Shown here piece by piece: positions 26,505 to 56,445 of a stretch of 64,000 nt of DNA. The notes under the pieces were generated by a model, which worked only from the letters and a program-made list of their open reading frames with translations, did no database searches and was not told where the DNA came from. How positions within the stretch are numbered: the stretch's first letter is position 1; the number at the start of each line of letters is the position of its first letter. The translations under genes were made by a program, and so were the position numbers. Source of the DNA: an uncultured Candidatus Rokubacteria bacterium (GTDB lineage: Bacteria > Methylomirabilota > Methylomirabilia > Rokubacteriales > DASRDR01); contig CAVPSB010000032.1 of NCBI GenBank assembly GCA_963708025.1, positions 224,001 through 288,000 of the forward strand, in the 5' to 3' direction.

Positions 26505-26580
26505 CGTTTGACGGCCTGCGGCCTTTGGCGCCCCCTCCCGACCGATCGGACGGCCTGCGGCCTCTGGCGGGGGAGGGGAG
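26505..26580 (-). repeat. family C repeat carrying two 20-bp hairpin modules
   Basis: CCCCTCCC/GGGAGGGG stem with CCAGAGGCCGCAGGCCGTCC and CCAAAGGCCGCAGGCCGTCA on the minus strand. Confidence 0.8.
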
Positions 26581-26651
26581 TCACGCCAGCCACGGGCGGC
26601 GCCCGCCGGCTGTAGGGCTTCCTCGATCCTGTTTCAGCTGGCCCGCCGGGG

Positions 26652-28201
26652 TCACAAGGGAATGTTCCCGTGCTTCTTCGGGGGATTCTGGTCGCGCTTG
26701 GTGTGCAGGGTCTCGAGCGCCTGGATCAGCCGGCGCCGCGTCTCTTTGGGCTCGATGACGTCATCGACGTAGCCGCGCTCGGCGGCCACGTAAGGATTGG
26801 CGAACTTCGCGCGGAACTCGGCCGTCCGCTCCTCGCGAAACCGCGCGGGGTCGCGCGCGTCGGCGAGCTCGCGCCGGTAGAGGACGTTGACGGCCCCTTC
26901 GGGCCCCATCACGGCGATCTCCGCCGTGGGGAAGGCGAAATTGGCGTCCCCTCGGATGTGCTTCGAGGACATCACGCAGTAGGCGCCGCCGTACGCCTTC
27001 CGCGTGATGACGGTGAGCTTGGGGACGGTGGCCTCCGCGAAGGCGAAGAGGAGCTTGGCCCCGTGCTTGATGATCCCGCCGAACTCCTGGGTCGTCCCCG
27101 GCAGGAAGCCCGGGACGTCCTCGAACGTGCAGAGCGGCAGGTTGAAGCAGTCGCAGAAGCGGACGAACCGGGCCCCCTTGAGCGACGCCGCGATGTCGAG
27201 GCACCCGGCCAGGTGGGCGGGCTGGTTGGCGACGACGCCGACCGGCCGGCCGCCGAGCCGCCCGAACCCGATCACGAGGTTCGGCGCGTAGTCCGGCTGC
27301 ACCTCGAAGAAATAGTGGTCGTCGAGGACCGTCTGGATCAGCTCCTTGATGTCGTAGGGCCGGGTCGGGTTGTCGGGCACCAGCGACTGGAGGGCCTCGT
27401 CCATGCGGTCCGGGGGATCGAGGGTGGGCCGGAGCGGCGGGTCCTCGAGGTTGTTCTGGGGGAGAAACGCCAGCAGCTCCCGGATGCCGGCCAGGCATTC
27501 CTCCTCGCTCTCGACCGCGAAGTGCGCCACCCCCGAGGTCCGAGCGTGGGTATCGGCCCCCCCAGCTCCTCGAAGGTCACCTCCTCGTGGGTCACCGACC
27601 GGATGACCTCCGGGCCCGTCACGAACATGTACGACGAGCCGCGCACCATGAAGACGAAGTCGGTGATCGCCGGGGAGTAGACGGCCCCGCCCGCGCAGGG
27701 ACCCATGACCGCCGAGATCTGGGGCACGACGCCGGAGGCCAGCGTGTTGCGGAGGAAGATGTCCGCGTACCCGGCCAGCGAGACGACGCCCTCCTGGATC
27801 CGCGCCCCGCCGGAGTCGTTGAGCCCGATGATCGGGACCCCGGTCTTGAGGGCCAGATCCATGATCTTGCAGATTTTCTGGGCGTAGGTGAGTGACAGCG
27901 AGCCCCCGAAGACGGTGAAGTCCTGGGCGAAGAGATAGGCGGGACGGCCGTGGATCCGGCCCGAGCCCGTGACGACGCCGTCCCCCGGGATCTTCTGCTC
28001 CGCCATCCCGAAGTCGGCGGCCTGGTGGACGACGAACCGGTCCATCTCGTCGAAGGAGCCCTTGTCCAGGAGAAGCTCGATCCGCTCCCGCGCCGTCCTC
28101 TTGCCCGCCTTGTGCTGGCGGGCGATGCGCTCCTCACCGCCGCCGACCTCGGCCTCCCGCCGCAGCCGGCGCAGCTCGGCGAAGCGCTCCTCGAGGGTCA
28201 C
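26652..28201 (-). CDS. pccB: propionyl-CoA/acyl-CoA carboxylase carboxyltransferase subunit; frameshift in C-run near 27560
   Basis: [39 protein letters not shown]; second frame [24 protein letters not shown]. Confidence 0.92.
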
Positions 28202-28209
28202 CTGTTCAA

Positions 28210-28299
28210 CAGGAGGGGGAGTCCCAACCACCGGATCGCCGGGACGCGCTCGGCCTGTGGCCTCGCGTCCGTCCCGTCCTTCCGGTGGTCCCCCTCCTG
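28210..28299. repeat. composite hairpin in pccB leader containing the 34-bp module also found in family B
   Basis: Outer arms CAGGAGGGGG..ACCACCGGA / TCCGGTGGT CCCCCTCCTG; 28243-28276 is the reverse complement of 32211-32244 with 2 mismatches. Confidence 0.75.
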
Positions 28300-28365
28300 G
28301 ACCTCCCCCACCTGGGGGTCGCTCGGTCAGCTCCGGGGCGGCATTGGAGTGAAACATCGGTTGGC

Positions 28366-28452
28366 ATTATACGGGCGACGTCGCCGGAGCGTCAAACCCG
28401 CTGGCCCGAAAAGGGCCGCCAATTTGACGGCGGAATGGCTGTCTGTTACGGT
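28366..28452. promoter_or_regulatory. divergent promoters (pccB; DUF948-ytxH)
   Basis: Minus: TTGACG-N18-TATAAT (28395-28366). Plus: TTGACG-N17-TACGGT with TG (28424-28452). Confidence 0.7.
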
Positions 28453-28503
28453 AAGGCACGGCCCGCACCGCGCACACCGGATTCGGGAAGAGGGGTCCAA
28501 CCC

Positions 28504-28890
28504 GTGCTCAGCGCCGCGGCACTCATCGCCAGCCTGGCCCTTCTCGGCCTCGTCCTGGCCGCCATTCCCGCGCTCCTTCAGCTCCGGCGGACGACCCAGG
28601 CCGCGGAGCAGACCCTGGCCACGCTCGAGCGCGAGGTGCGCCCCCTGATATCCCAGCTCCACGCCCTGCTGCAGGACCACCGGGAGCTGGCCCAGCGCGG
28701 GACGCGCGACCTCCGGGAGCTGGAAGGGCTGCTCCTCATGGCTCAGGAGGTGATCGGCCGGCTGATCAAGCTGACCGGGATCCTCGGTGGCATCGGCACG
28801 GTCAGGCGAGTGTACGGTCTGGCGCAGGGGCTGCGCAAGGGGCTCGACGTCTTCATCCAGCGACTGGGACACGGCAAGCGGTCCGGATAG
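28504..28890 (+). CDS. DUF948 family membrane-anchored coiled-coil protein
   Basis: N-terminal TM followed by a helical region; typical partner of YtxH. Confidence 0.75.
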   Translation: MLSAAALIASLALLGLVLAAIPALLQLRRTTQAAEQTLATLEREVRPLISQLHALLQDHRELAQRGTRDLRELEGLLLMAQEVIGRLIKLTGILGGIGTVRRVYGLAQGLRKGLDVFIQRLGHGKRSG

Positions 28891-28901
28891 GAGGGCACAC
28901 G

Positions 28902-29273
28902 ATGGCAGACGACCGACGGGACGACCTGAACTTCCTGGGCGCACTGGGGCTGATCACCGTGGGCGCCATCATCGGCGCCGGCGTCGCGCTGCTCCTGGCG
29001 CCGAAGACCGGCGAGGAGACGCGGGAGCTGCTGAAGGAGAAGGGGGTGGACTTCGCCCGGCGGGCCCAGGGTCGCGGCTCCGAGTTCGCCCGCCGAGCCC
29101 AGGAGACGGTGGGCGAGGCTCAGGTCAAGGCTCAAGAGGTCCTGGGACGCGGCAAGGAGGTCGTGGAGGAGAAGTCGGCTCAGCTCCGGGCGGCCTTCGA
29201 GGCCGGCCGCAGCGCCATGCGGGAGGAGATCTCGAAGCTCCGCGGTCGCGACGAGCCGATGGAGGGCGTCTAG
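28902..29273 (+). CDS. YtxH domain protein
   Basis: GAIIGAGVALLLAPKTGEETR motif; GGAGG RBS. Confidence 0.92.
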   Translation: MADDRRDDLNFLGALGLITVGAIIGAGVALLLAPKTGEETRELLKEKGVDFARRAQGRGSEFARRAQETVGEAQVKAQEVLGRGKEVVEEKSAQLRAAFEAGRSAMREEISKLRGRDEPMEGV

Positions 29274-29306
29274 ATCCTCGGGGGGGTCTCGGAAGACCCC
29301 CCCGAT
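29274..29306 (+). repeat. family A repeat copy 5 (5' hairpin only)
   Basis: TCGGGGGGGTCT-CGGA-AGACCCCCCCGA perfect stem right after the ytxH stop. Confidence 0.85.
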
Positions 29307-29427
29307 TCCGTACCTTACGGGTTGGGTGGGTGGGGCCGGCGGCAGAGCCGCCGCTCGAACCGCTCCCCAGGCTCGAACAGGCGACCTACCGTCCAGTCCT
29401 ACCTCGACAGGCTCTTCGCTCCGTGCG

Positions 29428-30498
29428 TCAGCGGGCCGGCTCGGCCCTCCTGAGCTGATCCTCCTCTACTTCGGGATCCCACTGGGTGGCGGCGGAGGGG
29501 CCGGCGGCCGCCATCCGGGTCAGCAGCCGCTCGTGGAGGGCGTGGGTCTTGGCGCTCCGACAGCCGTCCCGCTGGGCCAGCACCGGGTCGAGCGCCGCCC
29601 GCGCGCCCGCGATGTCGGCCGATCCCTCGCGCTCCTGGTCGATCAGCCGCCGGTAGATCCGCGTCAGCTCGCCGATGAGCGGGGCCGGATACTCCCGCCC
29701 CTGGATCTTCAGCGTGGTGACGCCCAGGGCCAGGTAGCGGGGGACGTCGTCGAGCAGGTTGTAGATCTCGTTGTTCGACCGCTCCAGGTAGTTCAGCACC
29801 CGGGCCGGGAACTTCTCGGCGATCTCGGGGACGTGATTGCCAAGACAGGGCCGGTAGCACACGCCACCCCGGTCCGGGTTGCCGATCAGCTTGATCCGGC
29901 GGCTCCCATCGGTGTCGTTCACCACCTGCTCCTCGAAGTACGGCGCGAAGTAGTCGTACAGGCGGCAGCCTCCCACCCCGGTGATGCAGCGGTTCGAGTG
30001 GATCAGCAGCTCGACGCCGATGCCGGCCTCGTCCGCCTCGCGCGTGAGGGCCGCGATGCGGTCGAAGCTCGACAGCGCGGTGGAGGCGACGAACTGGGTC
30101 GCCCCCGCCTCCCGGGCCCGCTCCATCGCCGCCCGGTCGCGGATGTTGCAGGCGACGCTGGCGTGGATGGTGATCTCGGGGAAGCGCGCGTGGACCTCTC
30201 GCATGGCGTCGTGGGACTTCATGATGAAGCCATCGACGCCGGCCGCGGCGTACCGCTCCACCTTCCGCATCAGCTCGGCGTGATCGGCGGGGTCGATGTC
30301 GACGTTGAGGGCCACCCGGAGCCGGGCTCCGTGGTCGTGGGCCCGCTCGGCCGATTCCAGGACCTCGTCGTGGGTCAGCTCGTAGGCCGCCTCCCGCCGA
30401 CTCCACCCCCGGGGCCCCACGTAGACCGAGTTCGCCCCGGCCGTCAGGGCGTCCCGGACCATCTCCATCGACCCGCCGGGCGCCAGTAACTCCGTCAT
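29428..30498 (-). CDS. U32 family Fe-S protein (UbiU/TrhP/RlhA-like)
   Basis: ELLAPGG, GANSVYVG, IHASV, CITGVGGC...GGVCYRPC, LKIQGR. Confidence 0.9.
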   Translation of the reverse strand: MTELLAPGGSMEMVRDALTAGANSVYVGPRGWSRREAAYELTHDEVLESAERAHDHGARLRVALNVDIDPADHAELMRKVERYAAAGVDGFIMKSHDAMREVHARFPEITIHASVACNIRDRAAMERAREAGATQFVASTALSSFDRIAALTREADEAGIGVELLIHSNRCITGVGGCRLYDYFAPYFEEQVVNDTDGSRRIKLIGNPDRGGVCYRPCLGNHVPEIAEKFPARVLNYLERSNNEIYNLLDDVPRYLALGVTTLKIQGREYPAPLIGELTRIYRRLIDQEREGSADIAGARAALDPVLAQRDGCRSAKTHALHERLLTRMAAAGPSAATQWDPEVEEDQLRRAEPAR

Positions 30499-30503
30499 TT
30501 GGT

Positions 30504-30570
30504 TCCTCCCGCCTACCCCCCCAGCCCCCCTCCCCCACCCACCGGGGGGAGGGGGGAGCCGGAGGCGTCG
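30504..30570 (-). repeat. family C repeat without module
   Basis: CCTCCCGCCTACCCCCCCAGCCCCCCTCCCCCACCCACCGGGGGGAGGGGGGAGCCGGAG; inverted near-identical copy at 58350-58423. Confidence 0.9.
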
Positions 30571-30609
30571 GTCGCATTGCATGCTCTCGGATCCGATTCA
30601 TTCGCGTGC

Positions 30610-32008
30610 TCACAGGTGGATCGCTTGCCCCATCGCGTCGAGGGCCGCCTCCATGACCGCCTCCGACAGCGTGGGGTGGGCATGGATCGTGTGGCCGACC
30701 TCCTCCACCGTGGCCTCCAGCGTCTTGCCGAGCCCGAACTCGGCGATCAGCTCGGTGGCCTCGGCGCCGAGGATGTGAACGCCGAGGATCTCCCCGGTGT
30801 CGGCAGCCGCGACGATCTTGACCAGGCCCTCGGGCTCGCCGAGCGCCTGGGCCTTGCCGTTGGCCAGGAACTGGTACCGGCCGACCCGCACCTCGCCCCC
30901 GCGCTCCCGGGCCTGGGCCTCGGTGAGCCCGAGACTGGCCACCTGGGGGTGGCAGTACGTGCAGCTCGGGACGGCCTGGTAGTTCACCCCGTGGGTCTCC
31001 CGCCCCGCGATCGTCTCGGCGGCCACGATGCCCTCCGCGCTCGCCTTGTGGGCGAGGAGCGGCGGGCCGGCCACGTCGCCGATCGCGTAGACGCCGGGAA
31101 CCGAGCTCTCCATGTGCGGGGTCACCTTCACGAAGCCGCGCTCCATCGCCACGCCGGCCCCCTCCAGCCCCACCCCGCGGCTCTTCGCGCCGCGCCCCAC
31201 CGCCATCAGGACCTGCTCGGCCGCCAGGCGGGCGGCCTTCCCCTCGTGCTCGATCTCCACCGTCACCCCGTCGCCCGTGGTCGTGACCGCCTGGACCCGG
31301 GCACCCGTCCGGACGTCGATCTGCCGCCGGGCGAAGCTCCGGGCGAGCAGTCGGGAGATCTCCTCGTCCTCGATCGGCAGGAGGCGGGGCAGCGCCTCGA
31401 CAATCGTGACCCGGGTGCCGTACGCGGCGAAGACGTCCGCGAACTCGACGCCCACCGCCCCGGCGCCGATCACGATGACCGACGCCGGCAGCCGCTCGAG
31501 GCGGAGGGCGTGGTCCGAGCTGATGACCCGGATGCCGTCGATGGCGACGCCGGGCAGGCTCTTTGGCTCGGCGCCGGTCGCCAGGAGCACCGCCGCGGGC
31601 CTCCAGCGTCCGGGCCGCCCCCTGGGCCGGATGGACGCGGACGGCGCCGGGACCGCTCAGCTCCCCGCGGCCGGGAATCAGGGTGATCCTGTTCTTCCGG
31701 AACAGGAACTCGACGCCCTTGGACATGCGGTCCGACACCTGGCGGCTCCGCCGATAGGCCACCGCGTAGTCGGCGCGCAGGTTGTCGAAGCTCACCCCGA
31801 AGTCCGCCGCCCGGTGGAGGAGCTGGAGCACCTCGGCGTTGCGCAGCAGCGCCTTGGTCGGGATGCAGCCCCAGTTCAGGCAGATGCCGCCCGGGCGCTC
31901 GGCCTCGACCACCGCCGTCCGGAGGCCGAGCTGAGCGGCGCGAATGGCGCCGACGTAACCGCCGGGGCCGGAGCCCACCACGACGACGTCGAACCGCTCG
32001 GTCGCCAC
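30610..32008 (-). CDS. lpdA: dihydrolipoyl dehydrogenase; frameshift near 31595
   Basis: GSGPGG, GGICLNWGCIPTK; second frame ATG, GAGAVG, AIGD, HAHPTLSE. Confidence 0.95.
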
Positions 32009-32063
32009 CGACTAGGGCCTAGGGCGTTGAAGCGACAAAGTCATGGCAGATGACTCAACTTCT

Positions 32064-32284
32064 CGGGCGGGGCCGAGGAGCGAGCAGCGCCCACAGGCCG
32101 AAGGCCGTCCGAGGGCCGCAGGGAGTCGCCGACCGCCAGCGGACTCCGAGTACGCCGAGGATCGGCGACGACCCCAAAGGCCGAAGGCCGTCCGAACGAC
32201 GACCATAGGTCGGGACGGACGCGAGGCCGTAGGCCGAGCGCGTCACGACCGAGATGAACATTGCGACGCTCATCGGCCCGCCCG
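32064..32284 (-). repeat. family B structured repeat copy 1
   Basis: Core GCAGGGAGTCGCCGACCG...ACTCCGAGTACGCCGAGGATCGGCGACGACC with pairing termini; copies at 41920, 51505, 63675. Confidence 0.9.
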
Positions 32285-33658
32285 CTAGACGAGCAGGCCG
32301 AGCGGCGCTTCCAGCAGCCCCTTGAGGTCCGCCAGGAAGCGGGCGCCCATCGCCCCGTCCATCACCCGGTGGTCGCACGAGATCGTGACCCGCATGCGCT
32401 TGCCGACGGCGAGCTGGCCGCCCACCACCACCGGCTTGTCGAGGATCGCGCCCACCGCCAGGATCGCCCCCTCCGGCGGGTTGATGATGGCGGAGAACTC
32501 ATCGACCGGGAACATCCCCAGGTTCGACACCGTGAAGGTGGCGCCGGAGAGCTCCTGGCCGCGCAGCTTGCGGCCCCGGGTGCGCTCCACGAGGTCACGG
32601 GCCTCGGCGGCGATCTGGAAGAGGCTCTTCTGGTCGGCGTCGCGGAGGACTGGGGTGATGAGGCCGTCGTCCAGGGCGACCGCGATCCCCATGTGCACCG
32701 CGCGGTAGCGCCGGACCGCCTGGCCCTGGAAGCTCGCGTTGACGCCGGGATGCTTCACGAGGGCGAGCGCGCAGGCCCGGACGATGAGGTCGGTGAAGGT
32801 GACCTTGGGGGCGTCCGGCAGGGCCTGGAGCTCCTCACGCAGCGCCACCGCCCGCTCCATCGCGATCTCGGTCGTCACGTAGAAGTGCGGGACCGGCGCC
32901 TTGGACTGCGTCATCTGCTTGGCGATCGCGGCCCGGATCGCCGTCAGCGGCTGGTCCTCGAATTCGGCTTCCGGCCGGACCTCCCGGAGCGGGGTCGGGC
33001 GCGGAGCCGCCGCCGGGCGCGTCGCGGCGGGAGCGGCCGGCGCCGGGGCGGCCCGGCCGGCGGCGACGAAGGCGTCCACGTCCCGCTGGATGACCCGTCC
33101 GCCGGGACCGCTTCCCTTGATCGCGCCGAGGTCCACCCCCGCCTTCTGGGCGAGCTTCCGGGCCAGCGGGGAGGCGCGGAGCCGCTGGCCGGGGACCGGC
33201 GGCCCCTCGTCCACCGGTGGGGCCTCGACCGCCGCCGCGACGGCGGTCGCCGCCGGGGCTCGCCGCACCTCGGCCGGCGAGGGCGACGGGGCGGTGGGCA
33301 CGATCCGCGCGCCCGCGGCCTGGGCGTCGGCGACCGTCGGCGTGGCCCGGGCCGGCTCGGGACGCGCGGGCGCGGATGGTGCACCCGCGCCGCCGACCAG
33401 GCTCGAGATGTCCTCGCCGGGCTCGGCGATGACGGCGATCAGGCTGCCGACCGGCACGCTCGCCCCGGGGGCGATGAGGACCTTCCTCAGGACCCCGGAG
33501 CCGAAGGCTTCGAGCTCGATGTCGGCCTTGTCGGTCTCGACCTCGGCGACGATATCACCGCCCGCGACTGGCTCGCCCTCCTGCTTGAGCCAGCGCAGGA
33601 GCTTGCCGGTCTCCATCGCCTCGGACAGCTTCGGCATCACGACCTTGGTCACCGCCAT
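32285..33658 (-). CDS. pdhC: pyruvate dehydrogenase E2
   Basis: Lipoyl domain ETDKA, E3-binding ASPLAR..GSGPGGR, catalytic DHRVMDG. Confidence 0.95.
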   Translation of the reverse strand: MAVTKVVMPKLSEAMETGKLLRWLKQEGEPVAGGDIVAEVETDKADIELEAFGSGVLRKVLIAPGASVPVGSLIAVIAEPGEDISSLVGGAGAPSAPARPEPARATPTVADAQAAGARIVPTAPSPSPAEVRRAPAATAVAAAVEAPPVDEGPPVPGQRLRASPLARKLAQKAGVDLGAIKGSGPGGRVIQRDVDAFVAAGRAAPAPAAPAATRPAAAPRPTPLREVRPEAEFEDQPLTAIRAAIAKQMTQSKAPVPHFYVTTEIAMERAVALREELQALPDAPKVTFTDLIVRACALALVKHPGVNASFQGQAVRRYRAVHMGIAVALDDGLITPVLRDADQKSLFQIAAEARDLVERTRGRKLRGQELSGATFTVSNLGMFPVDEFSAIINPPEGAILAVGAILDKPVVVGGQLAVGKRMRVTISCDHRVMDGAMGARFLADLKGLLEAPLGLLV

Positions 33659-33686
33659 GGTTCCTCCGGGTACCGGGCAGGAAGCG

Positions 33687-33793
33687 GGCTAGTGCCGTTC
33701 CAACTTGCTCCGGCTAGTGCTTTCGAATGCCGCAAGTCCGTGCTTCAAGAATCGCTTGCCCATTTGGCTCATGGAGTTGGAACGGCACTAGCC
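33687..33793. mobile_element. MITE-like element with 19-bp perfect terminal inverted repeat
   Basis: GGCTAGTGCCGTTCCAACT ... AGTTGGAACGGCACTAGCC; AT-richer interior; CTAG at both ends. Confidence 0.8.
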
Positions 33794-34774: not shown

Positions 34775-34789
34775 CGCCGGCCTACCCCG

Positions 34790-35800: not shown

Positions 35801-35828
35801 GCTCAGCCTCCGAGGCGTTCCTCGCCCG

Positions 35829-36131
35829 TCACCAGCGCATCAGCGACAGGTCGTCCACGCTGATGCGGTACCGGGCCCGGAAGATCGCCACGATGATGGC
35901 GAGGCCGACCGCGACCTCGGCCGCCGCCACCGTCATGACGAAGAACACGATGATCTGACCATCGACCACGCCTCGCGAGCGCCCGAAGGCCACGAAGGCC
36001 AGGTTGGCGGCGTTCAGCATGAGCTCGATGGACATGAAGATGACCAGCGGATTGCGCCGCACCAGGACGCCGATCACCCCGATCGTGAAGAGCACGGCCG
36101 AGAGCGCCGCGTAGTAGCTCGGCGGCACCAT
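35829..36131 (-). CDS. nuoK: NADH-quinone oxidoreductase subunit K
   Basis: [20 protein letters not shown]. Confidence 0.96.
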
Positions 36132-36135
36132 GGGA

Positions 36136-36627: not shown

Positions 36628-36628
36628 G

Positions 36629-41215: not shown

Positions 41216-41224
41216 TATTCGAGT

Positions 41225-41312
41225 CCGCCCCCATCCTTCGACGGCCTTCGGCCTGTGGCAACCCCTCCCGACTGTTGGACGGCCTCCGGCCTGTGGCCGG
41301 GGGGAGGGGGGC
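41225..41312 (-). repeat. family C repeat carrying two 20-bp hairpin modules
   Basis: Same architecture as 26505-26580; modules CCACAGGCCGGAGGCCGTCC and CCACAGGCCGAAGGCCGTCG. Confidence 0.8.
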
Positions 41313-41390
41313 CGGCCGCCGCCATTCCAAAGCAATCCGCGTGAGGCAAATCCCTCACCGTCCCTCGGCTGGCATCGCCCCGCGGCGTCA

Positions 41391-41879
41391 TCAGCGCAAA
41401 CCTTCCAGTACCTGATCAATGCGCTCGCGGGTCAGGGGGCCCACGTACTCGTCGTCCACCTGCATCATCGGCGCGACCTCGCAGGCGCAGAGGCACTCCA
41501 CCCGGAACAGCGTGACCCGGCCGTCGGGGGTCGTCTCCCCCGCCTCGATGCCGAGCTGCTCCTGGAGGTAGGCGATCACGTCCTCGGCCCCGAGCAGGGT
41601 GCACGAGAGGTTGTGGCAGACGGAGAGGGTGTGCCGCCCGACCGGCTTCTTGAGGAAGAGCGTGTAGAAGGTCACCACCTCGTGGACGTGGGCCGCCGAC
41701 AGGCCGAAGAGCCCGGCCACGTAGGTCTCGACCTCGGGCGAGACCCAGCCGAAGGTCTCCTGGGCGAAGTGCAGGACCGGCAGCAGGGCACCGCGGCGGT
41801 CCGGATAGAGCGCCTGCAGCTCCCGGACCCGGCGGAGCTGCGCGTCGGAGAAGACGATGGCCCCCACGGCCTCCGGCAT
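41391..41879 (-). CDS. nuoG-associated nuoE: NADH-quinone oxidoreductase subunit E
   Basis: VVTFYTLF, CHNLSC, ECLCAC..APMM. Confidence 0.94.
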   Translation of the reverse strand: MPEAVGAIVFSDAQLRRVRELQALYPDRRGALLPVLHFAQETFGWVSPEVETYVAGLFGLSAAHVHEVVTFYTLFLKKPVGRHTLSVCHNLSCTLLGAEDVIAYLQEQLGIEAGETTPDGRVTLFRVECLCACEVAPMMQVDDEYVGPLTRERIDQVLEGLR

Positions 41880-41919
41880 CAGCGCTCCACCTCCGACCGA
41901 CGCCCACAGAGCGTCCACA

Positions 41920-42137
41920 GCCCGGGTCGAGACCCGAGCAGCCCCCGCAGGCCGAAGGCCGTCCGACCGACGCAGGGAGTCGCCGACCGCAGGCGCACTC
42001 CGAGTACGCCGAGGATCAGCGACGACCCCAAAGGCCGAAGGCCATCCGAGGGACGCCCATAGGTCGGGACGGACGCCGAGCCGTAGGCGAGGCGCGTCAC
42101 GGCCGAGATGGGCGATGCGACGGGTATCGACCCGGGC
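41920..42137 (-). repeat. family B structured repeat copy 2
   Basis: Termini GCCCGGGTCGAGACCCG / CGGGTATCGACCCGGGC; same core as 32064. Confidence 0.9.
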
Positions 42138-42138
42138 A

Positions 42139-43533
42139 TCAGCGCTCCAGCTCGCCCGCGATCATGTTGACCGACCCGAAGGTCGGCACCATGTCGGCGA
42201 CCATGCGTCCCTCCAGCATGCGGTGGAGCGCGGCGGTCGGTGGGAGGCAGGGCGGGCGGCAGCGCACCCGGTAGGGCCGGTCCGTCCCGTCGGACACGAC
42301 GTAGAAGCCGAGCTCGCCGTTGGCGCCCTCCACCGCGAAGTAGGCCTCGCCCTTCGGCGGGCGGATGCCGAACCCCTCCATGATCAGCATGAAGTGGTTC
42401 ATCAGTCCCTCGATGGAGCCGTAGGTCTGCTCTTTCGGCGGCAGGACGGCGCGCCGGTTGGCGGCGTTGACGGCGTCGTGGAACGGCCGCTCCTGCCCGC
42501 GCAGGTTCGGTGAGAGCCGGAGCGGGGTCAGGAGGAGCCCGTCGGTCTTCCCGAGCTTGCCGCGGTCCACGAACTCGGCGGGGGTCGGCAGGGGTCGTCC
42601 CTCGAAGTCCACGTTGACCGGCCCCGCGGGCATGCGGGCCATCGCCTGCTCGGCGATCCGCATCGACTGCTCCATCTCGGCCATGCGGACGAGATACCGG
42701 TCGTAGTTGTCCCCGATCTCGCCCACGGGGATCTCGAAGTCCAGGCGGTCGTAGGCCCAGTACGGCGTCGCCCGCCGGACGTCGAATGGCACGCCGCAGG
42801 CCCGGAGCATGGGGCCGGTGATCGCGTAGGCGATCGTCTCGTCCCGGGAGAGGATCCCGATCCCCTTCATCCGGTCGATGAAGATCCGGTTCCCGGTCAG
42901 CAGCTTGTGGACCTCCTCCAGAACCTCCCGGGTCTCCTTGAAGGCCTGCCGGACGCCGGGCTCGAAGTCGGACGGCAAGTCGGCCTTGACGCCGCCCACC
43001 CGACCGTAGGAGATCGTCAGCCGCGCCCCGGTGACCTTCTCGATCACCTCCCACAGGAACTCGCGGGCCTTGATCATGTAAAGGAAGGCGGTGAACGCCC
43101 CCAGCTCCATGGCGGTGGCGCCGATGCAGGTGAGGTGGTCGCTGACCCGGGAGATCTCGCTCATGATCACCCGGATGTACTGGCAGCGCTCGGTGACCTC
43201 GATGTCCAGCAGCTTCTCGACCGCCGAGGCGTACCCGAAGTTGTTGATCAGGGGCGAGACGTAGTTCAGGCGGTCGGTGTACGGGATGGCGTTGTTGTAG
43301 GGCCCGGCCTCGCAGTGCTTCTCGAACCCCCGGTGGAGGTAGCCGATCTCCACGTCGGCCTTGACCAACGTCTCTCCGTCCAGTTCGGCGAAGATCCGGA
43401 TGACACCGTGCATCGCCGGATGGGACGGCCCGATGTTGACCAGCACGTTCTCGGTCGCCTCCGGCTGGGGGAACGTCCCCTCGCCGAGGAAGAACTCCTG
43501 GGTCCGTCGCGTCGCGCGCTCGGGCTCGGCCAT
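42139..43533 (-). CDS. nuoD: NADH-quinone oxidoreductase subunit D
   Basis: NIGPSHPAMHG, GYLHRGFEK, DRLNY, GELER; no NiFe CxxC motifs. Confidence 0.96.
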   Translation of the reverse strand: MAEPERATRRTQEFFLGEGTFPQPEATENVLVNIGPSHPAMHGVIRIFAELDGETLVKADVEIGYLHRGFEKHCEAGPYNNAIPYTDRLNYVSPLINNFGYASAVEKLLDIEVTERCQYIRVIMSEISRVSDHLTCIGATAMELGAFTAFLYMIKAREFLWEVIEKVTGARLTISYGRVGGVKADLPSDFEPGVRQAFKETREVLEEVHKLLTGNRIFIDRMKGIGILSRDETIAYAITGPMLRACGVPFDVRRATPYWAYDRLDFEIPVGEIGDNYDRYLVRMAEMEQSMRIAEQAMARMPAGPVNVDFEGRPLPTPAEFVDRGKLGKTDGLLLTPLRLSPNLRGQERPFHDAVNAANRRAVLPPKEQTYGSIEGLMNHFMLIMEGFGIRPPKGEAYFAVEGANGELGFYVVSDGTDRPYRVRCRPPCLPPTAALHRMLEGRMVADMVPTFGSVNMIAGELER

Positions 43534-43682
43534 CAGTCGGGCCGGGGGGGAGCTACGCGCTTCATCCGGATCGCCGCGACGCCTCGGGCCTGCGGCCCTC
43601 GGCGCGTCGCGCCCCTCCGGCGGCCCGGCTCACCCCTCCGCTCTCGTCGCTCCCGCATCCCGGGCGATGGCCGCACGGTCGC

Positions 43683-44180
43683 TCAGTTCTTGGGGCCGAT
43701 GAGGGGCTGGCGGCGGTTGATGAGGTAGTCCTTGCGGAGGGGATGTCCCACGAACTCCTCGTACATGAGCAGGCGCCGGAGGTCGGGATGGCCCTCGAAC
43801 CGGATCCCGTACATGTCCCAGACCTCCCGCTCGTACCAGTTCGCGATGGGCCACAGCGGCACCGCCGAGAACACGACGGGGTCGTCTTCCTCCACCGACA
43901 CCTTGACCCGCAGCCGGTGGTTTTCGGGGACGGAGTAGAGATGGTAGACCACCTCGAACCGCCCGCCTTCCTCCCGGCCCGGATACTTGAGCCAGTCCAC
44001 GGCGGTGAGGTCCATCAGCATGTCGAACCGCAGCGCCGGATCGTCGCGACAGAAGCGCAGCAGCTCCAGGGCCGTCGCCCGGTTGACCACCGCGGTGTGA
44101 TCGCCCCGGTGGGCGTGCGTCTCCCGGATGGCCGGGCCGAACCGCTCCTTCAGCCGCCCGAGAATCGCCTCGCCGTCCAT
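43683..44180 (-). CDS. nuoC: NADH-quinone oxidoreductase subunit C
   Basis: ANWYEREVWDMYGI.F.GHPDLRRLL, GHPLRKDY. Confidence 0.96.
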   Translation of the reverse strand: MDGEAILGRLKERFGPAIRETHAHRGDHTAVVNRATALELLRFCRDDPALRFDMLMDLTAVDWLKYPGREEGGRFEVVYHLYSVPENHRLRVKVSVEEDDPVVFSAVPLWPIANWYEREVWDMYGIRFEGHPDLRRLLMYEEFVGHPLRKDYLINRRQPLIGPKN

Positions 44181-45003: not shown

Positions 45004-45006
45004 CGC

Positions 45007-45930: not shown

Positions 45931-45988
45931 TCGTGAGAGACCGGCGTGACCTCGCTCATTATGCCACAGCCACGCACCAGGCAAGACC

Positions 45989-46019
45989 GTAACGGGGCTC
46001 CGGACCAGAGCCCCGTTAC
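45989..46019. terminator. perfect 12-bp hairpin downstream of tRNA-Leu
   Basis: GTAACGGGGCTC-CGGACCA-GAGCCCCGTTAC; no clear U-tract. Confidence 0.5.
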
Positions 46020-46079
46020 TCCGCCAGTCGCGGTCGCCCACGCTCCCGCAACGCCACGACCCGGCCACTACCCGGATGT

Positions 46080-46164
<85 letters not shown>

Positions 46165-46224
46165 GCACCGCGTATGATGCCGCGACGGCCGCGCCACTGT
46201 CAAGCGCGGCGACGGCGCGGCCCC

Positions 46225-48143: not shown

Positions 48144-48169
48144 GGATCAGCGGGGCGACGGCCGGCGGA

Positions 48170-50300: not shown

Positions 50301-50384
50301 GGCTCAGTCGGGCCGGCGGGGCGCCGGGTTCTCAGGCGTCGGCGGCGATGCCTTCACGGTCTCTCGGACGGAGGACCTCCCCCG

Positions 50385-50690
50385 TCACTTCGGCGCCGGG
50401 GCTGGCGCGGCAGGGCCGGCCGGCGCCGCCGCCGGCGCGGTCGCGGGAACGACGGAGCTGTGACGCGACGAGAGGATCGCCAGCGAGAACGACGTCAGCA
50501 TGAAGAAGATCGCGACGGTGGTCGTGATCTTCCCCAGGATCGTCGGGGTCCCCATCGAGCCGAACACCGCCTGGCTCCCGCCGCCGCCGAAGGCGGAGCC
50601 GATGTCGGCGCCCTTGCCCGCCTGGAGGAGGACGATGGCGATGATCGCGAGACACATCAGCACGTGGACGATGACGATGGCGATGTACAC
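50385..50690 (-). CDS. secG: preprotein translocase subunit SecG
   Basis: VLLQAGKGADIGSAFGGG; follows tpiA. Confidence 0.96.
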   Translation of the reverse strand: MYIAIVIVHVLMCLAIIAIVLLQAGKGADIGSAFGGGGSQAVFGSMGTPTILGKITTTVAIFFMLTSFSLAILSSRHSSVVPATAPAAAPAGPAAPAPAPK

Positions 50691-50699
50691 GGGGTCTCC

Positions 50700-51488
50700 T
50701 TATCGGGTCGGGGCCGCGGCCCGCTTCTTCGCCTCGCGGAGGACCCGGACGATGGTGACGAAGTCGGCGGCTTTCAGGCTCGCCCCGCCGACCAGACCCC
50801 CGTCCAGCTCGACCTCGGCCATGAGGGCGGACAGGTTCTCGGGCTTGACACTGCCACCATAGAGGATCGGACAGGCGTCGGCCACGCCGTCGCCCGCCAG
50901 CTCGCGCAGGAGGCTCCGGATTCGCGCGTGGACCTCGCCGGCCTGGGCCGGCGTCGCCGTCTGCCCGGTCCCGATGGCCCACACCGGCTCGTAGGCGACC
51001 CAGCACGCCGCGATCTCGGCGGGGGTGAGCCCGGCCACGGCGCTCCGGAGCTGGCCGCTCACGACGGCCTCCGTCGTGCCCCCCGCGCGCTCGGCCGCCG
51101 TCTCCCCGACGCACACCACCGGGGTGAGCCCGTGGGCCAGCGCCCCGCGCACCTTCCGGTGCACGACCTCGTCGGTGTCGCCGAAGTACTGGCGGCGCTC
51201 CGAATGGCCCAGGATGACGACCCGGGCACCAGCGTCCGCGACCTGGACAGGAGAGATCGCGCCGGTGAAGGCGCCCTTGGCCTCCCAGTGCGCGTCCTGG
51301 GCGCCGGCCAGCAGGCCCGAGCCCGCCAGGACGCGGGCCACGGTGGCGAGCGCGGTGAACGGAGGGCACAGGACGACCTGGACGCCGTCCAGGCCGTGGC
51401 AGCCCTCGCGTACGGCCTGGGCCAGCGCGTGGGCCTCGGCCAGCGTGGTGTGCATCTTCCAGTTCCCGACCACCACCGGCTCCCGCAT
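50700..51488 (-). CDS. tpiA: triosephosphate isomerase
   Basis: GNWKM, GHSERR, AYEPVWAIGTG, YGGSV. Confidence 0.98.
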   Translation of the reverse strand: MREPVVVGNWKMHTTLAEAHALAQAVREGCHGLDGVQVVLCPPFTALATVARVLAGSGLLAGAQDAHWEAKGAFTGAISPVQVADAGARVVILGHSERRQYFGDTDEVVHRKVRGALAHGLTPVVCVGETAAERAGGTTEAVVSGQLRSAVAGLTPAEIAACWVAYEPVWAIGTGQTATPAQAGEVHARIRSLLRELAGDGVADACPILYGGSVKPENLSALMAEVELDGGLVGGASLKAADFVTIVRVLREAKKRAAAPTR

Positions 51489-51504
51489 CACGCGTTCCCC
51501 CCGA

Positions 51505-51680
51505 TGCCGGGCCGAGAACCGAGCAGCCCCCGTAGGCCGCAGGCCGTCCAGCCGACGCAGGGAGGAGGCGGGCCGAGACGTACGCCGCGATCGACCATCT
51601 GGTCGCGGCGCCTCGGGACGTCGCTCCCTTCCGGGAGGCCCGCCGGGATGATGAAGATGGCGAAGGTCATCGGCACGGCA
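51505..51680 (-). repeat. family B structured repeat copy 3 (diverged core)
   Basis: TGCCGGGCCGAGAACCGAGCAGCCC-module-GACGCAGGGAG ... GGTCATCGGCACGGCA. Confidence 0.75.
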
Positions 51681-52865
51681 TCACGCGTCGTCCAGCGCGG
51701 CCACGCCGGGCAGCGTCCGCCCTTCGAGGAATTCGAGGAAGGCGCCGCCACCGGTGGAGAGATACCCGATCCGCCGGGCGACGCCCGCCTGCTCGACGGC
51801 CGCCACCGTGTCTCCCCCGCCGACGACGGAGAGCCCGGGCGCCTCGGCGACCGCCCGCGCGACGCCGAGGGTGCCGGCCGCGAAGGGCGCCCGCTCGAAG
51901 ACGCCCATCGGGCCGTTCCACACCACCGTCCCGCCGTCCCGGATCGCCTCGCCGAACGCCGCCACCGTGCGGGGGCCGATGTCGAGGCCCATCCGGTCGG
52001 CCGGCATCGCGGTGACCGGGACGACCTCACCGGCGGTCGCCTCGACGGAGAGGGCGACGACGGAGTCCACCGGAAGCCGGATCTCGACACCGCGCGCCCG
52101 GGCCATCTCGGCGAGGCGGGCGGCGGCCGGGATCAGATCCGGCTCCAGGAGCGAGCGGCCCACCTCCCGGCCCTGTGCCTTGAGGAAAGTGAAGGCCATC
52201 CCGCCGCCGATCAGCAGCCGATCGACCTTGGTGAGGAGCGACTCGACGAGCTTCAGCTTGTCCGAGACCTTGGCCCCGCCCAGGATGGCGACCAGCGGGC
52301 GGGCCGGGGCGTCGAGGACCCGCCCCAGCGCCTCCAGCTCCTGCTTCATCAGCAACCCGGCGACGGCCGGGCGGAGAAAGCGCGTGATGCCCTCGGTCGA
52401 GGCGTGGGCCCGGTGGGCGGCGGCGAACGCGTCGTTGACGTAGACGTCGCCAAGCGCGGCCAGCGCCCGGGCGAAGGCCGGATCGTTCGCCTCCTCGCCG
52501 GCGTGGAAGCGGAGGTTCTCGAGCAGCAGGAGCCCGCCCGGAGTCAGGTCGCGGACCTGCGCCTCCACGGCGGGGCCGACGCAGTCGAGGGCGAGCGGCA
52601 CCTCGACGCCGACGAGCTGCCCGAGCCGGACCGCCACCGGGCGGAGCGAGTACCGGGGATCGGGCCCGCCCTTGGGCCGCCCGAAGTGGGAGGCGAGGGC
52701 GATCCGGGCGCCGGCCTTCCGGGCGCGGTCGATCGTCGGCAGCACGCCGCGGATGCGGGAGTCCTCGGCGACCTCGCCCGCCCGCGTCAACGGGACGTTG
52801 AAGTCGACGCGCAGGAAGACGCGGCGACCGGCCAGGTCCACGTCCTCGATGGTGCGCTTCTTCAC
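51681..52865 (-). CDS. pgk: phosphoglycerate kinase
   Basis: RVDFNVP, SHFGRP, LENLRF, STGGGA. Confidence 0.98.
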   Translation of the reverse strand: MKKRTIEDVDLAGRRVFLRVDFNVPLTRAGEVAEDSRIRGVLPTIDRARKAGARIALASHFGRPKGGPDPRYSLRPVAVRLGQLVGVEVPLALDCVGPAVEAQVRDLTPGGLLLLENLRFHAGEEANDPAFARALAALGDVYVNDAFAAAHRAHASTEGITRFLRPAVAGLLMKQELEALGRVLDAPARPLVAILGGAKVSDKLKLVESLLTKVDRLLIGGGMAFTFLKAQGREVGRSLLEPDLIPAAARLAEMARARGVEIRLPVDSVVALSVEATAGEVVPVTAMPADRMGLDIGPRTVAAFGEAIRDGGTVVWNGPMGVFERAPFAAGTLGVARAVAEAPGLSVVGGGDTVAAVEQAGVARRIGYLSTGGGAFLEFLEGRTLPGVAALDDA

Positions 52866-52866
52866 G

Positions 52867-54112
<1,246 letters not shown>

Positions 54113-54149
54113 CGTCGGCGTGCGCTCGCCGTGGGCCTCCGATCCCGCA

Positions 54150-54923
54150 TCAGGGATCGGCGACGCGGGCGAGGACGAGCACCCCGACCGACGCCGCCCC
54201 CGCGTCCCGGAGCGCCCGCGCCGCCGCCCGCGCGGTGGCCCCGGTGGTCAGGACGTCGTCGACGAGGAGGAGATGGCGCCCCACAACCTCGGCCGGGCGC
54301 CGCACCGCGAAGGCCCCGGCCACGTTCTCGCGGCGAGCGGCGGCGTCCAGGTCGGTCTGGGGGCGGGTCGGCCGGACGCGTACCAGGGCCCGGGTCAGGA
54401 GCGGTCGCCCCCAGGCGGCCGCGCAGGGGGCCGCGAGCAGCGCGGCCTGGTTGAACCCGCGCTCGGCCAGCCGGGCGGGATGAAGGGGCACGGGAACGAG
54501 GGCGTCGAGCACCGGCGGGAGGCCGACCGCATCGCCGAGCAGGCGCCCGCCCCGATCGGCGAGCAGCGCGGCCAGGGGAGCGGCCACCGCCGTCCGTCCC
54601 CGGTACTTCAGCGCGTGGATCGCGGCCCGCATGCCGTCCCGGTAGGCGGCTACCGCCCGGGCCCGGTCGAACGGCGGCGGCTGCCGGCGGCACGCGTCAC
54701 AGGCGAGTGGCGCCGGCAGCCCGACGAAGTAGCGGCCGCAGACCCGACAGCCGGGCTCCGTCAGGAGCGGCAGGTCCGCCCAGCAGGCCGCGCAGAAGGG
54801 ACGATGGCGCGGGTCGTCGGAACGCGCCTGACAGACCGGGCAGATGGCGGGGAAGAGGAGGCCGAGCACCGGGTCGAGCCACGGCGGGAGGCGACGGGAG
54901 AGCGGCAGCGTTCCCGAGTTCAC
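54150..54923 (-). CDS. comF: ComF family protein
   Basis: Double Zn ribbon, VPVPLH..RGFNQA, LLVDDVLTTGAT. Confidence 0.93.
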   Translation of the reverse strand: MNSGTLPLSRRLPPWLDPVLGLLFPAICPVCQARSDDPRHRPFCAACWADLPLLTEPGCRVCGRYFVGLPAPLACDACRRQPPPFDRARAVAAYRDGMRAAIHALKYRGRTAVAAPLAALLADRGGRLLGDAVGLPPVLDALVPVPLHPARLAERGFNQAALLAAPCAAAWGRPLLTRALVRVRPTRPQTDLDAAARRENVAGAFAVRRPAEVVGRHLLLVDDVLTTGATARAAARALRDAGAASVGVLVLARVADP

Positions 54924-54988
54924 GGGAGTGCGGGGCGGCCGATGACCCGAGAGGCCTGATCGGCGCGGGCGCCGGCGGGGTGGCCGGC

Positions 54989-55360
54989 CTAACCGGTCGC
55001 GGCCTTCTCCTCCTGCTCGATGGCCCGCTGGCAGCCGATGCAGTGGCGCGCGAATGGCAGCGCCTCCAGCCGTTTCTCGGCGATCGGCTCGCCGCACCGC
55101 TCGCACTCTCCGAAGCCGCCCTCGTCGAGCTTGCGCAGCGCGGTCACGACTTCCTTGAGGAGCCGGCGGTCGCCATTTCCCAGCTCGAAGAGGAACTCGC
55201 GGGTGTACGCGGTCGTGGCCTGGTCACCGAGATCCTTGATCGAGTCGTCTTCCTGGCCCTTCCCGTACAGCGCGCTCCGGCCGACCTCGTCCTCGAGCTG
55301 GCGACGCTTGTCGATGAGCGCTTTGCGGAAGTGAGCCAGCCGATCCTTCTTGATTTTCAT
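54989..55360 (-). CDS. DksA/TraR C4 zinc-finger protein
   Basis: DLGDQA tip, CERC...RLEALP.ARHCIGC. Confidence 0.93.
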   Translation of the reverse strand: MKIKKDRLAHFRKALIDKRRQLEDEVGRSALYGKGQEDDSIKDLGDQATTAYTREFLFELGNGDRRLLKEVVTALRKLDEGGFGECERCGEPIAEKRLEALPFARHCIGCQRAIEQEEKAATG

Positions 55361-55626
55361 GCGTCGGAGCCTCCCTTCGGGCGACGCTTGGCGAATCGAG
55401 TAGTCGGAAGTTAGCATGGGTCCCCAGGGGTGTCTAGCCGGAAAAAACGGATTCGCCCCGTCCCGGACAGGAGTCGCGATGGTCAACGCCGACGCGGCCG
55501 ATCAGGGGCCGGAACGTCCGCTCGATAGCGTGAGCGGTGCTTCGATCGACAGCTCGGGCGCATCGCCCCACCGCCGCTCAGGCGGCAAGTCAGGCTCTCG
55601 CGGGCAGGAACACGCGCGCCACCACG

Positions 55627-56355
55627 TCAGGGGGCGGCGACCCGATAGCGCGCCTCGACGGTGATCACGACCTCGAGCTGACCGGCCTCGACGGGACCGG
55701 GGGCAGCGGTGCCGAAGGCTCGGCCCGCCATGTAGGAGATCCGCGGCTCGGGCCCGGCTCCGCCCTCGGTCAGCGAAAGCAGTGGACCCAGTCCCACGCC
55801 GGCGGCCTCGGCAAGCTGGCGCGCGCGGGCGGCGGCGTCCCGGACCGCCCGAGCGCGAGCCTCCGCCTCCGCCGCCGCCGGTTCGCCGAGCGTGAAGTGG
55901 AGCGCGCGCACCACATTGGCCCCGGCCGCGACCGTGGCGTCCAGGATGGTGCCGACACCGTCGAGGCGGCGGACCCGCAGTTCCACGACGTTGACCACGT
56001 GGTAGCCGACGATCCGGGGAGGCTGCTGATCCCGCTGGGGGCTCATCACCGGCTCCACGGTGTACGTCACGGTCCGGATGTCACGCTCCTCCAAACCCAT
56101 CTCCCGGACTCGCGCCAGCACGGCGGTCGTCCGGCGGGCGACCTCGGCGCTCGCGTCGGCCAGGAGCGGCGCCCGCGCCTCGGCGCCGACCTGGACCAGC
56201 GCGGTGTCCGGAGGCACGGACACCCGGCCGGTGCCGGTCACGGTGATTCCGGTCGGTCGCCGGTCCGGCCCGCCTATCCGGCCGGGCCCACCCGCGCACC
56301 CGACGGCGACCACGGTGACACACGCCAGGCCAGCCACCAGAGCTCGTCGAGTCAT
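55627..56355 (-). CDS. SIMPL (DUF541) domain lipoprotein
   Basis: Lipobox-like VAVGC, ITVTGTG.VSVPPD, A.DA.ARA..LA. Confidence 0.9.
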   Translation of the reverse strand: MTRRALVAGLACVTVVAVGCAGGPGRIGGPDRRPTGITVTGTGRVSVPPDTALVQVGAEARAPLLADASAEVARRTTAVLARVREMGLEERDIRTVTYTVEPVMSPQRDQQPPRIVGYHVVNVVELRVRRLDGVGTILDATVAAGANVVRALHFTLGEPAAAEAEARARAVRDAAARARQLAEAAGVGLGPLLSLTEGGAGPEPRISYMAGRAFGTAAPGPVEAGQLEVVITVEARYRVAAP

Positions 56356-56383
56356 GCGCTACCTCCGGGGCCTCGGTTCGGGA

Positions 56384-56445
56384 CCTCCCGCCTACCCGAT
56401 CCTTCGACGGCCTTCGGCCTTTGGCCCCCTCCCCACCCCATTCCT
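56384..56445 (-). repeat. family C repeat carrying one 20-bp module
   Basis: CCTCCCGCCTACCC (as at 30505) + GACGGCCTTCGGCCTTTGG + CCCCCTCCCCACCCC. Confidence 0.75.

Follow-up and report, generated by a model that had tools for sequence, protein, structure and literature searches.

A 21-nucleotide GNA-loop hairpin module in defined slots of intergenic palindromic elements of a Candidatus Rokubacteria genome

The window analysed here is a stretch of 64,000 nucleotides (nt) of contig CAVPSB010000032.1 (G000:C32:224001-288000) from the genome of an uncultured Candidatus Rokubacteria bacterium (8.17 Mb, 49 contigs, 71% G+C). It contains ten copies of a short hairpin module with a GNA triloop, which is a real, abundant and lineage-specific optional part of several palindromic elements located at operon junctions. 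The reading somewhat favoured in this study is that the module is a 21-nt lineage-specific cassette, similar to repetitive extragenic palindromes (REPs), that entered at least eight slots by an orientation-specific process and then became mostly a passenger on its hosts.

The module has a conserved part of 19 bases (CC-N-N-A-GGCC-GNA-GGCC-GTC) and then a short, variable junction, and forms a stem of 4 bp and a loop of 3 nt, with GTC(C) located 3' and CCA located 5' of the stem. A first-pass annotation made from the sequence had listed ten copies in the window, and the 19-nt core CCNNAGGCCGNAGGCCGTC was found at all ten, with two positions (26548 and 41277) corrected to 26549 and 41278. Nine copies match without a mismatch, while the copy at 42028 carries ATC for GTC. 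Five copies are on the plus and five on the minus strand, and the loops in coordinate order are GCA, GCA, GAA, GAA, GAA, GGA, GAA, GAA, GCA, and GAA. All ten indeed lie inside larger repeats, and the module-free versions of both host types that had been reported are present (Table 1). Searched for without its flanks, the core GGCCGNAGGCC gave 13 matches in the window, compared to 0.99 expected, and none of 100 shuffles reached 13. Three of these matches are not modules: 32225 (GTA loop) is a native apex hairpin in the long form of repeat family B, 34545 lies inside a coding sequence, and 43587 (GCA loop) belongs to a module-free hairpin element between nuoC and nuoD. This last element spans approximately 43545-43640.

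Table 1. Module copies and host elements in the window (positions counted from its first letter).
Feature	Positions	Strand	Match to 19-nt core
Module core, GCA loop, family-A tail slot	26510..26528	-	exact match
Module core, GCA loop, loop slot of the family-A element also holding the 26510 copy	26549..26567	-	exact match
Module core, GAA loop, family-B slot 1	32091..32109	+	exact match
Module core, GAA loop, family-B slot 2	32174..32192	+	exact match
Module core, GAA loop, family-A tail slot	41240..41258	-	exact match
Module core, GGA loop, family-A loop slot	41278..41296	-	exact match
Module core, GAA loop, family-B slot 1	41945..41963	+	exact match
Module core, GAA loop, family-B slot 2	42028..42046	+	one mismatch (ATC)
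Module core, GCA loop, family-B slot 1 (variant element in the pgk-tpi spacer)	51530..51548	+	exact match
Module core, GAA loop, family-A-type element upstream of a SIMPL-domain gene	56406..56424	-	exact match
Family-A host element that extends to the methylmalonyl-CoA mutase start codon (ATG)	26494..26580	-	
Family-A host element in the 175-nt nuoE-nuoF spacer	41221..41318	-	
Family-A/C hairpin, empty loop and empty tail slot	30504..30560	-	
Family-A/C hairpin, empty loop and empty tail slot	58365..58425	+	
Family-B element, long form, ~26-nt terminal inverted repeats, E2-E3 gap of a 2-oxoacid dehydrogenase gene cluster	32065..32284	+	
Native GTA hairpin of the family-B long arm (slot 3, module-free state)	32218..32245	+	
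Family-B element with variant terminal repeats in the nuoD-nuoE spacer	41890..42134	+	
Family-B element, both slots empty	63680..63795	+	

A genome-wide scan with the loop left free (CCNNAGGCC-NNN-GGCCGTC) returned 540 copies (GAA 486, GGA 28, GCA 11, GTA 2, and 13 others), 527 of which have a GNA loop, so that the GNA bias suspected from the window was upheld. Loop changes also centre on the middle base genome-wide (41 variants, compared to 3 at the first and 8 at the third base), and GGA and GCA loops are present in most slots. Freeing one module position at a time (a reversed-pattern control gave 5 matches in total) left 0-14 non-consensus copies of ~530 at each stem, outer loop, and immediate flank position, and 81 and 244 at module bases 3 and 4. 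Compensatory stem changes are essentially absent among the 540 copies: the 486 copies with a GAA loop are GGCC/GGCC, and one GGGC/GCCC copy may be due to chance, which makes covariation unusable. The closing pair of the module is C-G, the orientation that has been reported as stable for d(GNA) loops (PMC3201870), and the predicted fold has -3.4 kcal/mol on either strand in a nearest-neighbour model that has no term for GNA loops. A search of Rfam 15 at the gathering score matched only rRNA and tRNA in the window, and gave no match for the module.

Gene positions genome-wide were taken from my own crude gene caller (6808 genes). According to these calls, 492 of the 527 modules lie between genes, with 240 co-directional and 167 antisense copies, 59 between convergent and 26 between divergent genes. 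Neighbouring modules within 400 bp are predominantly arranged head-to-tail (239 direct vs 20 inverted pairs) and have preferred spacings of 38, 83, and 21 nt.

Clustering of the module flanks across the genome sorted them into a few classes, corresponding to at least eight non-homologous slots: three in family B (B1, B2, and B3), the loop and the tail of family A, two in a further hairpin family that is itself nested in family-A loops, and one in an additional host family with a single slot. Clustering left 36 of 525 copies unclassified; inspected by eye, nearly all of these are in variant C-arm/G-arm or other hairpins, and ~4 are ambiguous. Slot lengths were then counted from anchors in the host sequence only, and these samples are hence not selected for the presence of a module. 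Slot 1 of family B measured 13 nt (63 copies), 34 nt (60), or 55 nt (4; n = 163), slot 2 measured 3 nt (86) or 24 nt (50; n = 150), and family-A loops measured 7 nt (234) or 27-29 nt (85), with loops of 67 and 70 nt (~7+63) holding three tandem units. A 21-nt step was thus measured in three slots of two repeat families, and the unit is not 20 bp as initially proposed, since empty and filled sites differ by 21, 42, or 63 nt.

The same correction applies to the example that the first-pass annotation had built on the copy at 42028-42047. The filled site, GACGACC/GAGGGACG, does correspond to the empty site GACGACC|GAGGACG at 63756-63769, but is 21 nt longer rather than 20, because an extra G has to be counted. 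Similarly, the expectation of precise junctions holds for the length step, but not for the 3' edge, where one to three bases are replaced between filled and empty sites. No target-site duplication was seen at the module slots of this genome, and the two module ends, CCNNA and GTCC, do not form an inverted repeat.

Filled and empty states were largely decoupled from the variants of the host. When family-B characters (terminal-repeat type, slot 1, apex variant, slot 2, short or long form, and slot 3) were compared in pairs, nearly all pairs showed all four combinations; the exception was terminal-repeat type against form, as the variant repeat was found only in short family-B copies. Occupancy was independent of the apex variant, with odds ratios of 1.2 (p = 0.68) for slot 1 and 1.15 (p = 0.83) for slot 2. 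On a smaller scale, both modules of the 26510/26549 pair carry the rare GCA loop, and in six of six neighbour pairs in which both modules are variant, the variants are identical, which points to local copying.

The first-pass annotation had suggested either a minimal mobile element or a modular REP-like system. The observations show a discrete unit that defined slots of unrelated host repeats either contain or lack, and insert-like behaviour is supported at the level of these slots and of an element in a sister genus. That the 21-mer itself moves, via single-stranded DNA and with a dedicated enzyme, is what I infer from these patterns.

The module occurs in two genera. In addition to the 527 strict copies of this genome, 8-73 copies were found in 14 of 15 genomes of one sister genus, and 0 copies in 25 genomes that represent five further genera of this family and four further families of its order. 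At least 72 public loci contain the exact 20-mer; among the matches listed, 61 had titles naming Candidatus Rokubacteria, Rokuibacteriota, or a name beginning with Methylomirabil. The 19-mer is identical across the two genera, while the host is different: in the sister genus, it is a 50-nt element with the 20-mer at its head and the layout [A/G]TGAGC - module - GATCAACTCGCGCGGAGCCAGGGTAGCCCA - GTGAGC. RTGA was found in register to the left of the module at 38 of 72 loci (4.5 expected) and at +28 to +34 to the right of it at 20 of 72 loci (3.1 expected). One genome, G010, has ATGAGC-[50 nt]-GTGAGC, while the orthologous site of G014 has a single GTGAGC and overlapping stop and start codons, so that both a flanking duplication and an empty site are seen for this element. 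The 61-nt element is present in dozens of copies per genome in the sister genus. At several sister-genus loci (L009, L036, L046, and L053), left half-units (~GCCACAGGCC, 10 nt) are stacked with right half-units (~GTCCGATCAAC, 11-14 nt; 14 nt with GGCC) in similar numbers around one central hairpin, as judged by eye, and nested insertion may be one reading of this arrangement. In four metagenome-assembled genomes (loci L024, L038, L048, and L064), the module directly follows GTGAGC at the start of one common peptidase-like gene, where it appears by eye to be in frame and may be translated.

The hosts themselves are small elements at gene junctions. Family B (179 core matches, 174 of which were analysed) has a length of ~110-270 nt, no coding capacity, and a layout similar to miniature inverted-repeat transposable elements (MITEs); its terminal inverted repeats are ~26 nt long, and an inner stem and an apex hairpin lie between them. 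A window copy folds as a single long hairpin in which the modules are side branches (z = -3.8). Of 167 copies, 146 have their right terminus next to the stop codon of the gene adjacent to it (median distance of 7 nt, measured from an anchor 6-7 nt inward of the terminus), and the copy at 32065..32284 accordingly adjoins the E2 stop codon. The element between nuoD and nuoE is flanked by an exact 15-bp direct repeat, GGCATCAGCGCTCCA (41875-41889 and 42135-42149, found by eye), which duplicates the end of nuoD and the start of nuoE. No parent insertion sequence (IS) with family-B termini was found: 147 of 148 facing pairs of terminal repeats lie within 400 bp, one pair is at least 5 kb apart, and none spans an interval of coding size, although collapsed IS copies may be missing from a draft assembly. 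As separate observations on family B, its apex hairpin (e.g., window 32130-32150) exists as GCGTACTCCGAGTACGC and GCGTATGCCGCATACGC, two forms with differences on either side of the stem, and a change in the left terminal repeat is accompanied by one in the right (GAGGAGCG..CGCTCATC and GAGACCCG..CGGGTCTC); because both sides or both termini change together, pairing is kept through the change. Family A/C is a hairpin with a C-rich arm, a loop, and a G-rich arm, and its tail carries GGGAGG. A total of 260 family-A tails was found, and the downstream gene is co-directional in 185 of 259 scored cases, in ~75 of these within 35 nt.

All six module-bearing elements of the window are between neighbouring genes on the same strand. 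Four of them are inside operon-like clusters (nuoD-E, nuoE-F, E2-E3 of the 2-oxoacid dehydrogenase, and pgk-tpi), while the remaining two are in the gap between mutase and carboxyltransferase genes and in a gap between two small genes. In window positions 41216-43683, three successive nuo junctions carry three repeat families, namely the hairpin element at nuoC-D, family B at nuoD-E, and family A at nuoE-F. The 175-nt nuoE-nuoF spacer is replaced in relatives by overlapping stop and start codons, TGATG or GTGA (L084, L086, and L087, the three loci correctly framed by the script out of 13 fetched), and the 259-nt nuoD-nuoE spacer by a GTGA overlap in both relatives' loci (L084 and L085). Furthermore, in four of four soil sequencing runs (one contig each), the spacer 26491-26658 is replaced by 19 other letters, seen as a 26490->26659 joint whose flanks of up to 255 nt match at ~97%. 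The soil runs hold relatives that share ~0.4 of the 31-letter words sampled from the window, the few long contigs listed align at ~95-99%, and none of the 21 runs listed was an RNA run. The empty nuo junctions and this replaced spacer indicate that whole composite elements come and go between relatives, and the gain and loss at orthologous sites that had been proposed therefore stands for whole elements, but not for single modules. Among the joints listed, those within repeat copies of the soil-run contigs (e.g., 32173->32262 and 32203->32262) were indistinguishable from paralogous copies and hold nothing usable on gain or loss of the module.

According to the cassette reading, modules would have entered larger palindromes of the MITE-like type, at apical loops or at junctions, by an orientation-specific insertion or replacement that most likely acts on extruded or single-stranded hairpin loops and is catalysed in trans by a putative enzyme. 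Afterwards, module copies would multiply mainly as passengers of their hosts, which may insert at stop/start junctions of co-transcribed genes and thereby bring in a Shine-Dalgarno-like tail. Local 21-nt tandem duplication would supply further copies, and exchange between host copies, or recurrent loss, would shuffle filled and empty slots.

Several observations weigh against this reading. The variation of the middle loop base is partly non-independent, as it involves tandem arrays and one GGA subfamily. The 3' junction bases differ between sites (TAG vs CGAAG, CAATG, or CGATC), leaving no clean pairs with and without insert, and in slot 1 of family B the three positions right after the 19-nt core are hypervariable (0.37-0.55 non-consensus, compared to 0-3% at their neighbours). 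Module variants are slot-specific, with CCACA in slot 1, CCAAA in slot 2, and CCCCA in slot 3 (bases 3-4 AC, AA, and CC), which suggests that each slot may have been founded only a few times and that filled copies then spread along with their hosts. Host core and module are equally uniform (median of 3% non-consensus per position in the core), so that conservation within the genome shows no special constraint on the module, and the idea of such a constraint relative to the host was dropped. No convincing lone module in unique, non-repeat sequence was found in this genome; independent mobility of the 21-mer in it thus follows from inference rather than from direct observation. For 167 family-B copies, flanking duplications of at least 7 bp, which is where the reach of the method begins, were about as frequent as in shuffled pairings. 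The assembly is a 49-contig draft, estimated at 99.67% completeness and 8% contamination, and had no match to PF01797 (Y1 and the REP-associated tyrosine transposases, RAYTs), TnpB (PF07282), or reverse transcriptase (PF00078). Among other potential movers, IS110-type (PF01548; 7 matches, 6 over cut-off) and Y2 (PF04986; 3 weak partial matches) genes were all at least 2.4 kb away from any module and were rejected, as were genes bracketed by inverted modules (35 pairs 300-4000 bp apart), for which all 12 single-gene cases were housekeeping genes.

An alternative that goes further than the cassette reading is that the 21-mer is an active, independent single-stranded DNA element whose hairpin is cut by an HUH enzyme (RAYT, IS200-type) or a similar one and pasted into single-stranded hairpin loops. 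The GNA triloop with its invariant asymmetric flanks would fit this explanation, as would the many unrelated slots, the stacked half-units that resemble nested self-insertion, and locus L022, where by eye a lone 20-mer lies between two GAGC. The distribution of PF01797 initially appears to agree as well, with Y1_Tnp in 9 of 15 genomes of the only other carrier genus and in none of five genomes from the other five genera of the family. Nevertheless, the genome with the most copies (527) lacks PF01797 altogether, and the window encodes no candidate either, as had been noted before (40 proteins scanned, no transposase or recombinase). The sister-genus Y1_Tnp-like gene (~300-320 aa) is found by eye in one shared neighbourhood (L097-L104), is flanked by its own inverted repeats of the GGGGTCAG.CCTT.ACTT type, which are unrelated to the module, and has no module nearby at any of these eight loci. 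The anticipated RAYT or Y1 gene flanked by the motif was hence found neither in this genome nor at the eight sister-genus loci read, and the proposed HUH/RAYT link is not supported for this genome. Copy numbers do not track Y1 either (45 copies without it in G016, 8 copies with it in G009), the unit has one hairpin where IS200/IS605 ends have two, and the lack of lone modules and the slot-specific variants argue in the same direction, which makes this alternative unlikely.

The opposite explanation, that the module never moves, would make it an indel variant with one or a few origins in ancestral repeats, spread by amplification of host subfamilies, 21-nt slippage, hairpin-driven deletion, and recombination. 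It can draw on the slot-specific bases 3-4, the shared rare variants of tandem arrays (the 6/6 identical pairs), the equal homogeneity of host and module, and the comparison between strains, where a whole-element indel but no module indel was seen. Likewise, the states of slots 1 and 2 are positively linked (odds ratio 5.0, p = 3e-5), and slot 2 is linked to the short form of family B (odds ratio 6.7, p = 1e-5). However, the same 19-20 nt occur with the same orientation logic in at least eight slots with dissimilar flanks and in a host of another genus, and for each of these, this short piece alone must have been transferred at least once. Nor are empty sites explained as simple deletions between the short repeats present, which would predict GCGCCCACAGGACGC while GCGCTAGGACGC is observed, and occupancy is independent of the apex variants of the host; immobility is therefore judged quite improbable. 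Finally, and compatible with any of these readings, the module might be kept for a job at gene junctions, either as a site for a nucleoid or processing protein or as an RNA hairpin with an influence on how polycistronic mRNA decays or is translated, and would then have spread by selection and not by selfish movement. Such a role would suit the intergenic location of 492 of 527 copies, the same-strand neighbours of all six window elements (four of them in nuo, 2-oxoacid dehydrogenase, or pgk-tpi clusters), the GGAGG-like motifs of host tails with their 185 of 259 co-directional downstream genes, and the identity of the 19-mer in two genera. It appears doubtful given that the module faces both ways relative to transcription (240 vs 167), so that an RNA role would need both the GAA and the UUC form to work, that the 4-bp stem is weak at -3.4 kcal/mol (a model without a GNA bonus), that most host copies lack the module, and that there is no Rfam match.

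The cassette reading also has a bolder extension, which is tentative and on the unlikely side. In this version, the 21-nt GGCC-GNA-GGCC cassette would itself be mobile, and a kind of enzyme not yet tied to REP-type repeats would insert it, always in the same orientation, into single-stranded hairpin loops and also into its own loop; a new kind is proposed because the 527-copy genome has no Y1, TnpB, or reverse transcriptase gene. The hosts, in turn, would restore a stop codon, a Shine-Dalgarno motif, and a start codon when splitting overlapping genes. If true, the cassette would be the smallest known mobile unit, and insertion into its own loop would produce the stacked half-units of the sister genus. 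REP-type repeats are abundant, yet their formation and spread are known only for the RAYT-linked GTAG class. The present module is very small and sharply defined, with a measurable 21-nt step and hundreds of filled and empty slots in one genome, and the related 50-nt form adds a flanking duplication and an empty orthologous site; together, these properties make the question of what moves a bare hairpin testable by strain comparison and phyletic profiling, with a little-studied soil phylum as the test bed. The hosts are of interest themselves, as they sit with ribosome-binding-like tails between co-transcribed genes of core operons (nuo, pdh, and pgk-tpi) at which relatives have overlapping stop and start codons.

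Two observations concern the surroundings of the module. Approximately the first 200 kb of contig C31 contain no modules, several of the IS110-type and Y2-like matches are located there, and the module density of this contig is 5.8 per 100 kb, compared to 8-19 on other contigs; given the 8% estimate, this module-free region may be foreign DNA or contamination. The window itself begins with an rRNA operon on the minus strand (1-4523), in which the 23S gene is truncated by the window edge, 16S spans 2964-4523, and the gap between the two is only ~200 nt, with no tRNA reported in it.

In IS200/IS605-type and REPtron transposition, a DNA hairpin is recognised together with adjacent unpaired bases, there are no inverted termini, and the targets are single-stranded; IS200/IS605 elements have two subterminal hairpins and make no flanking duplications. 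The module resembles them in being a hairpin with adjacent unpaired bases and without inverted termini. It differs in that no Y1 gene is present, that there is one hairpin instead of two, that no consistent strand preference relative to genes was found (240/167), and that the sister-genus element does have flanking duplications. A further comparison is with pneumococcal BOX elements (PMC3049150). Their layout is boxA-boxB(n)-boxC. Like these, the present elements are modular intergenic repeats with an internal module in zero to several tandem copies, but while the BOX module belongs to one element family, the module studied here is common to unrelated hosts and to a host of another genus. Among MITEs, of which Correia/NEMIS, ERIC, RUP, and Nezha have been named (PMC3733652), family B is matched by its ~26-nt terminal inverted repeats, small size, long hairpin fold, location beside coding sequences, and high copy number, and the 50-nt sister-genus element by its 5-6 bp flanking duplication. 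In contrast to MITEs, the module has no inverted termini, and no parent IS and no consistent duplication of at least 7 bp were found for family B.

The closest likeness is to REPs and bacterial interspersed mosaic elements (BIMEs), for which GTAG- and CGTC-tagged superfamilies have been described (Di Nocera et al. 2013, PMC3733652). With 527-540 copies, the module exceeds the >100 short, GC-rich, mostly intergenic palindromes by which REPs are recognised, and it shares with REP/BIME repeats the conserved unpaired bases beside the stem, the mosaic arrays, the frequent location near stop codons, and the lineage specificity. It has no GTAG head, and while CGTC REPs have stems of 8-9 bp and loops of 4-5 nt, the module has 4 bp and 3 nt, and its CGTC and CCA letters are probably on opposite sides from the head and tail of that paper; stem length, loop length, and tag position thus rule out membership in the CGTC superfamily as it is delineated there. 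Head-to-tail pairs are described as absent or negligible in most REP families (PMC3733652), whereas module pairs are head-to-tail (239 vs 20 inverted) rather than the head-to-head or tail-to-tail dimers of REPs and REPINs (paired REPs), and this genome has no RAYT. Among the papers listed, literature searches returned no description of the module or of genomic repeats in Rokubacteria, and none of those in which the exact core string occurs concerned bacterial repeats. REPs inside palindromes have been described before: GTAG-23 in CCGSSCC(n3,4)GGSSCGG of Thermomicrobium roseum, GTAG-15 dimers in Anabaena variabilis, and CGTC-1 dimers in Halothiobacillus neapolitanus, with hundreds of empty target palindromes in the GC-rich genome of T. 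roseum (PMC3733652), although the passages of that survey on nested REPs do not study the association in detail. The small hairpin in the loop of a larger palindrome, and the empty and filled C-arm/G-arm hairpins of this genome, closely resemble the T. roseum case. Relative to the nested REPs described in that survey, the module is a single 21-nt unit instead of a dimer, occupies many hosts and slots, forms tandem and stacked arrays, and shows a measured 21-nt step, and it is as such a REP-like variant of modular nested intergenic repeats.

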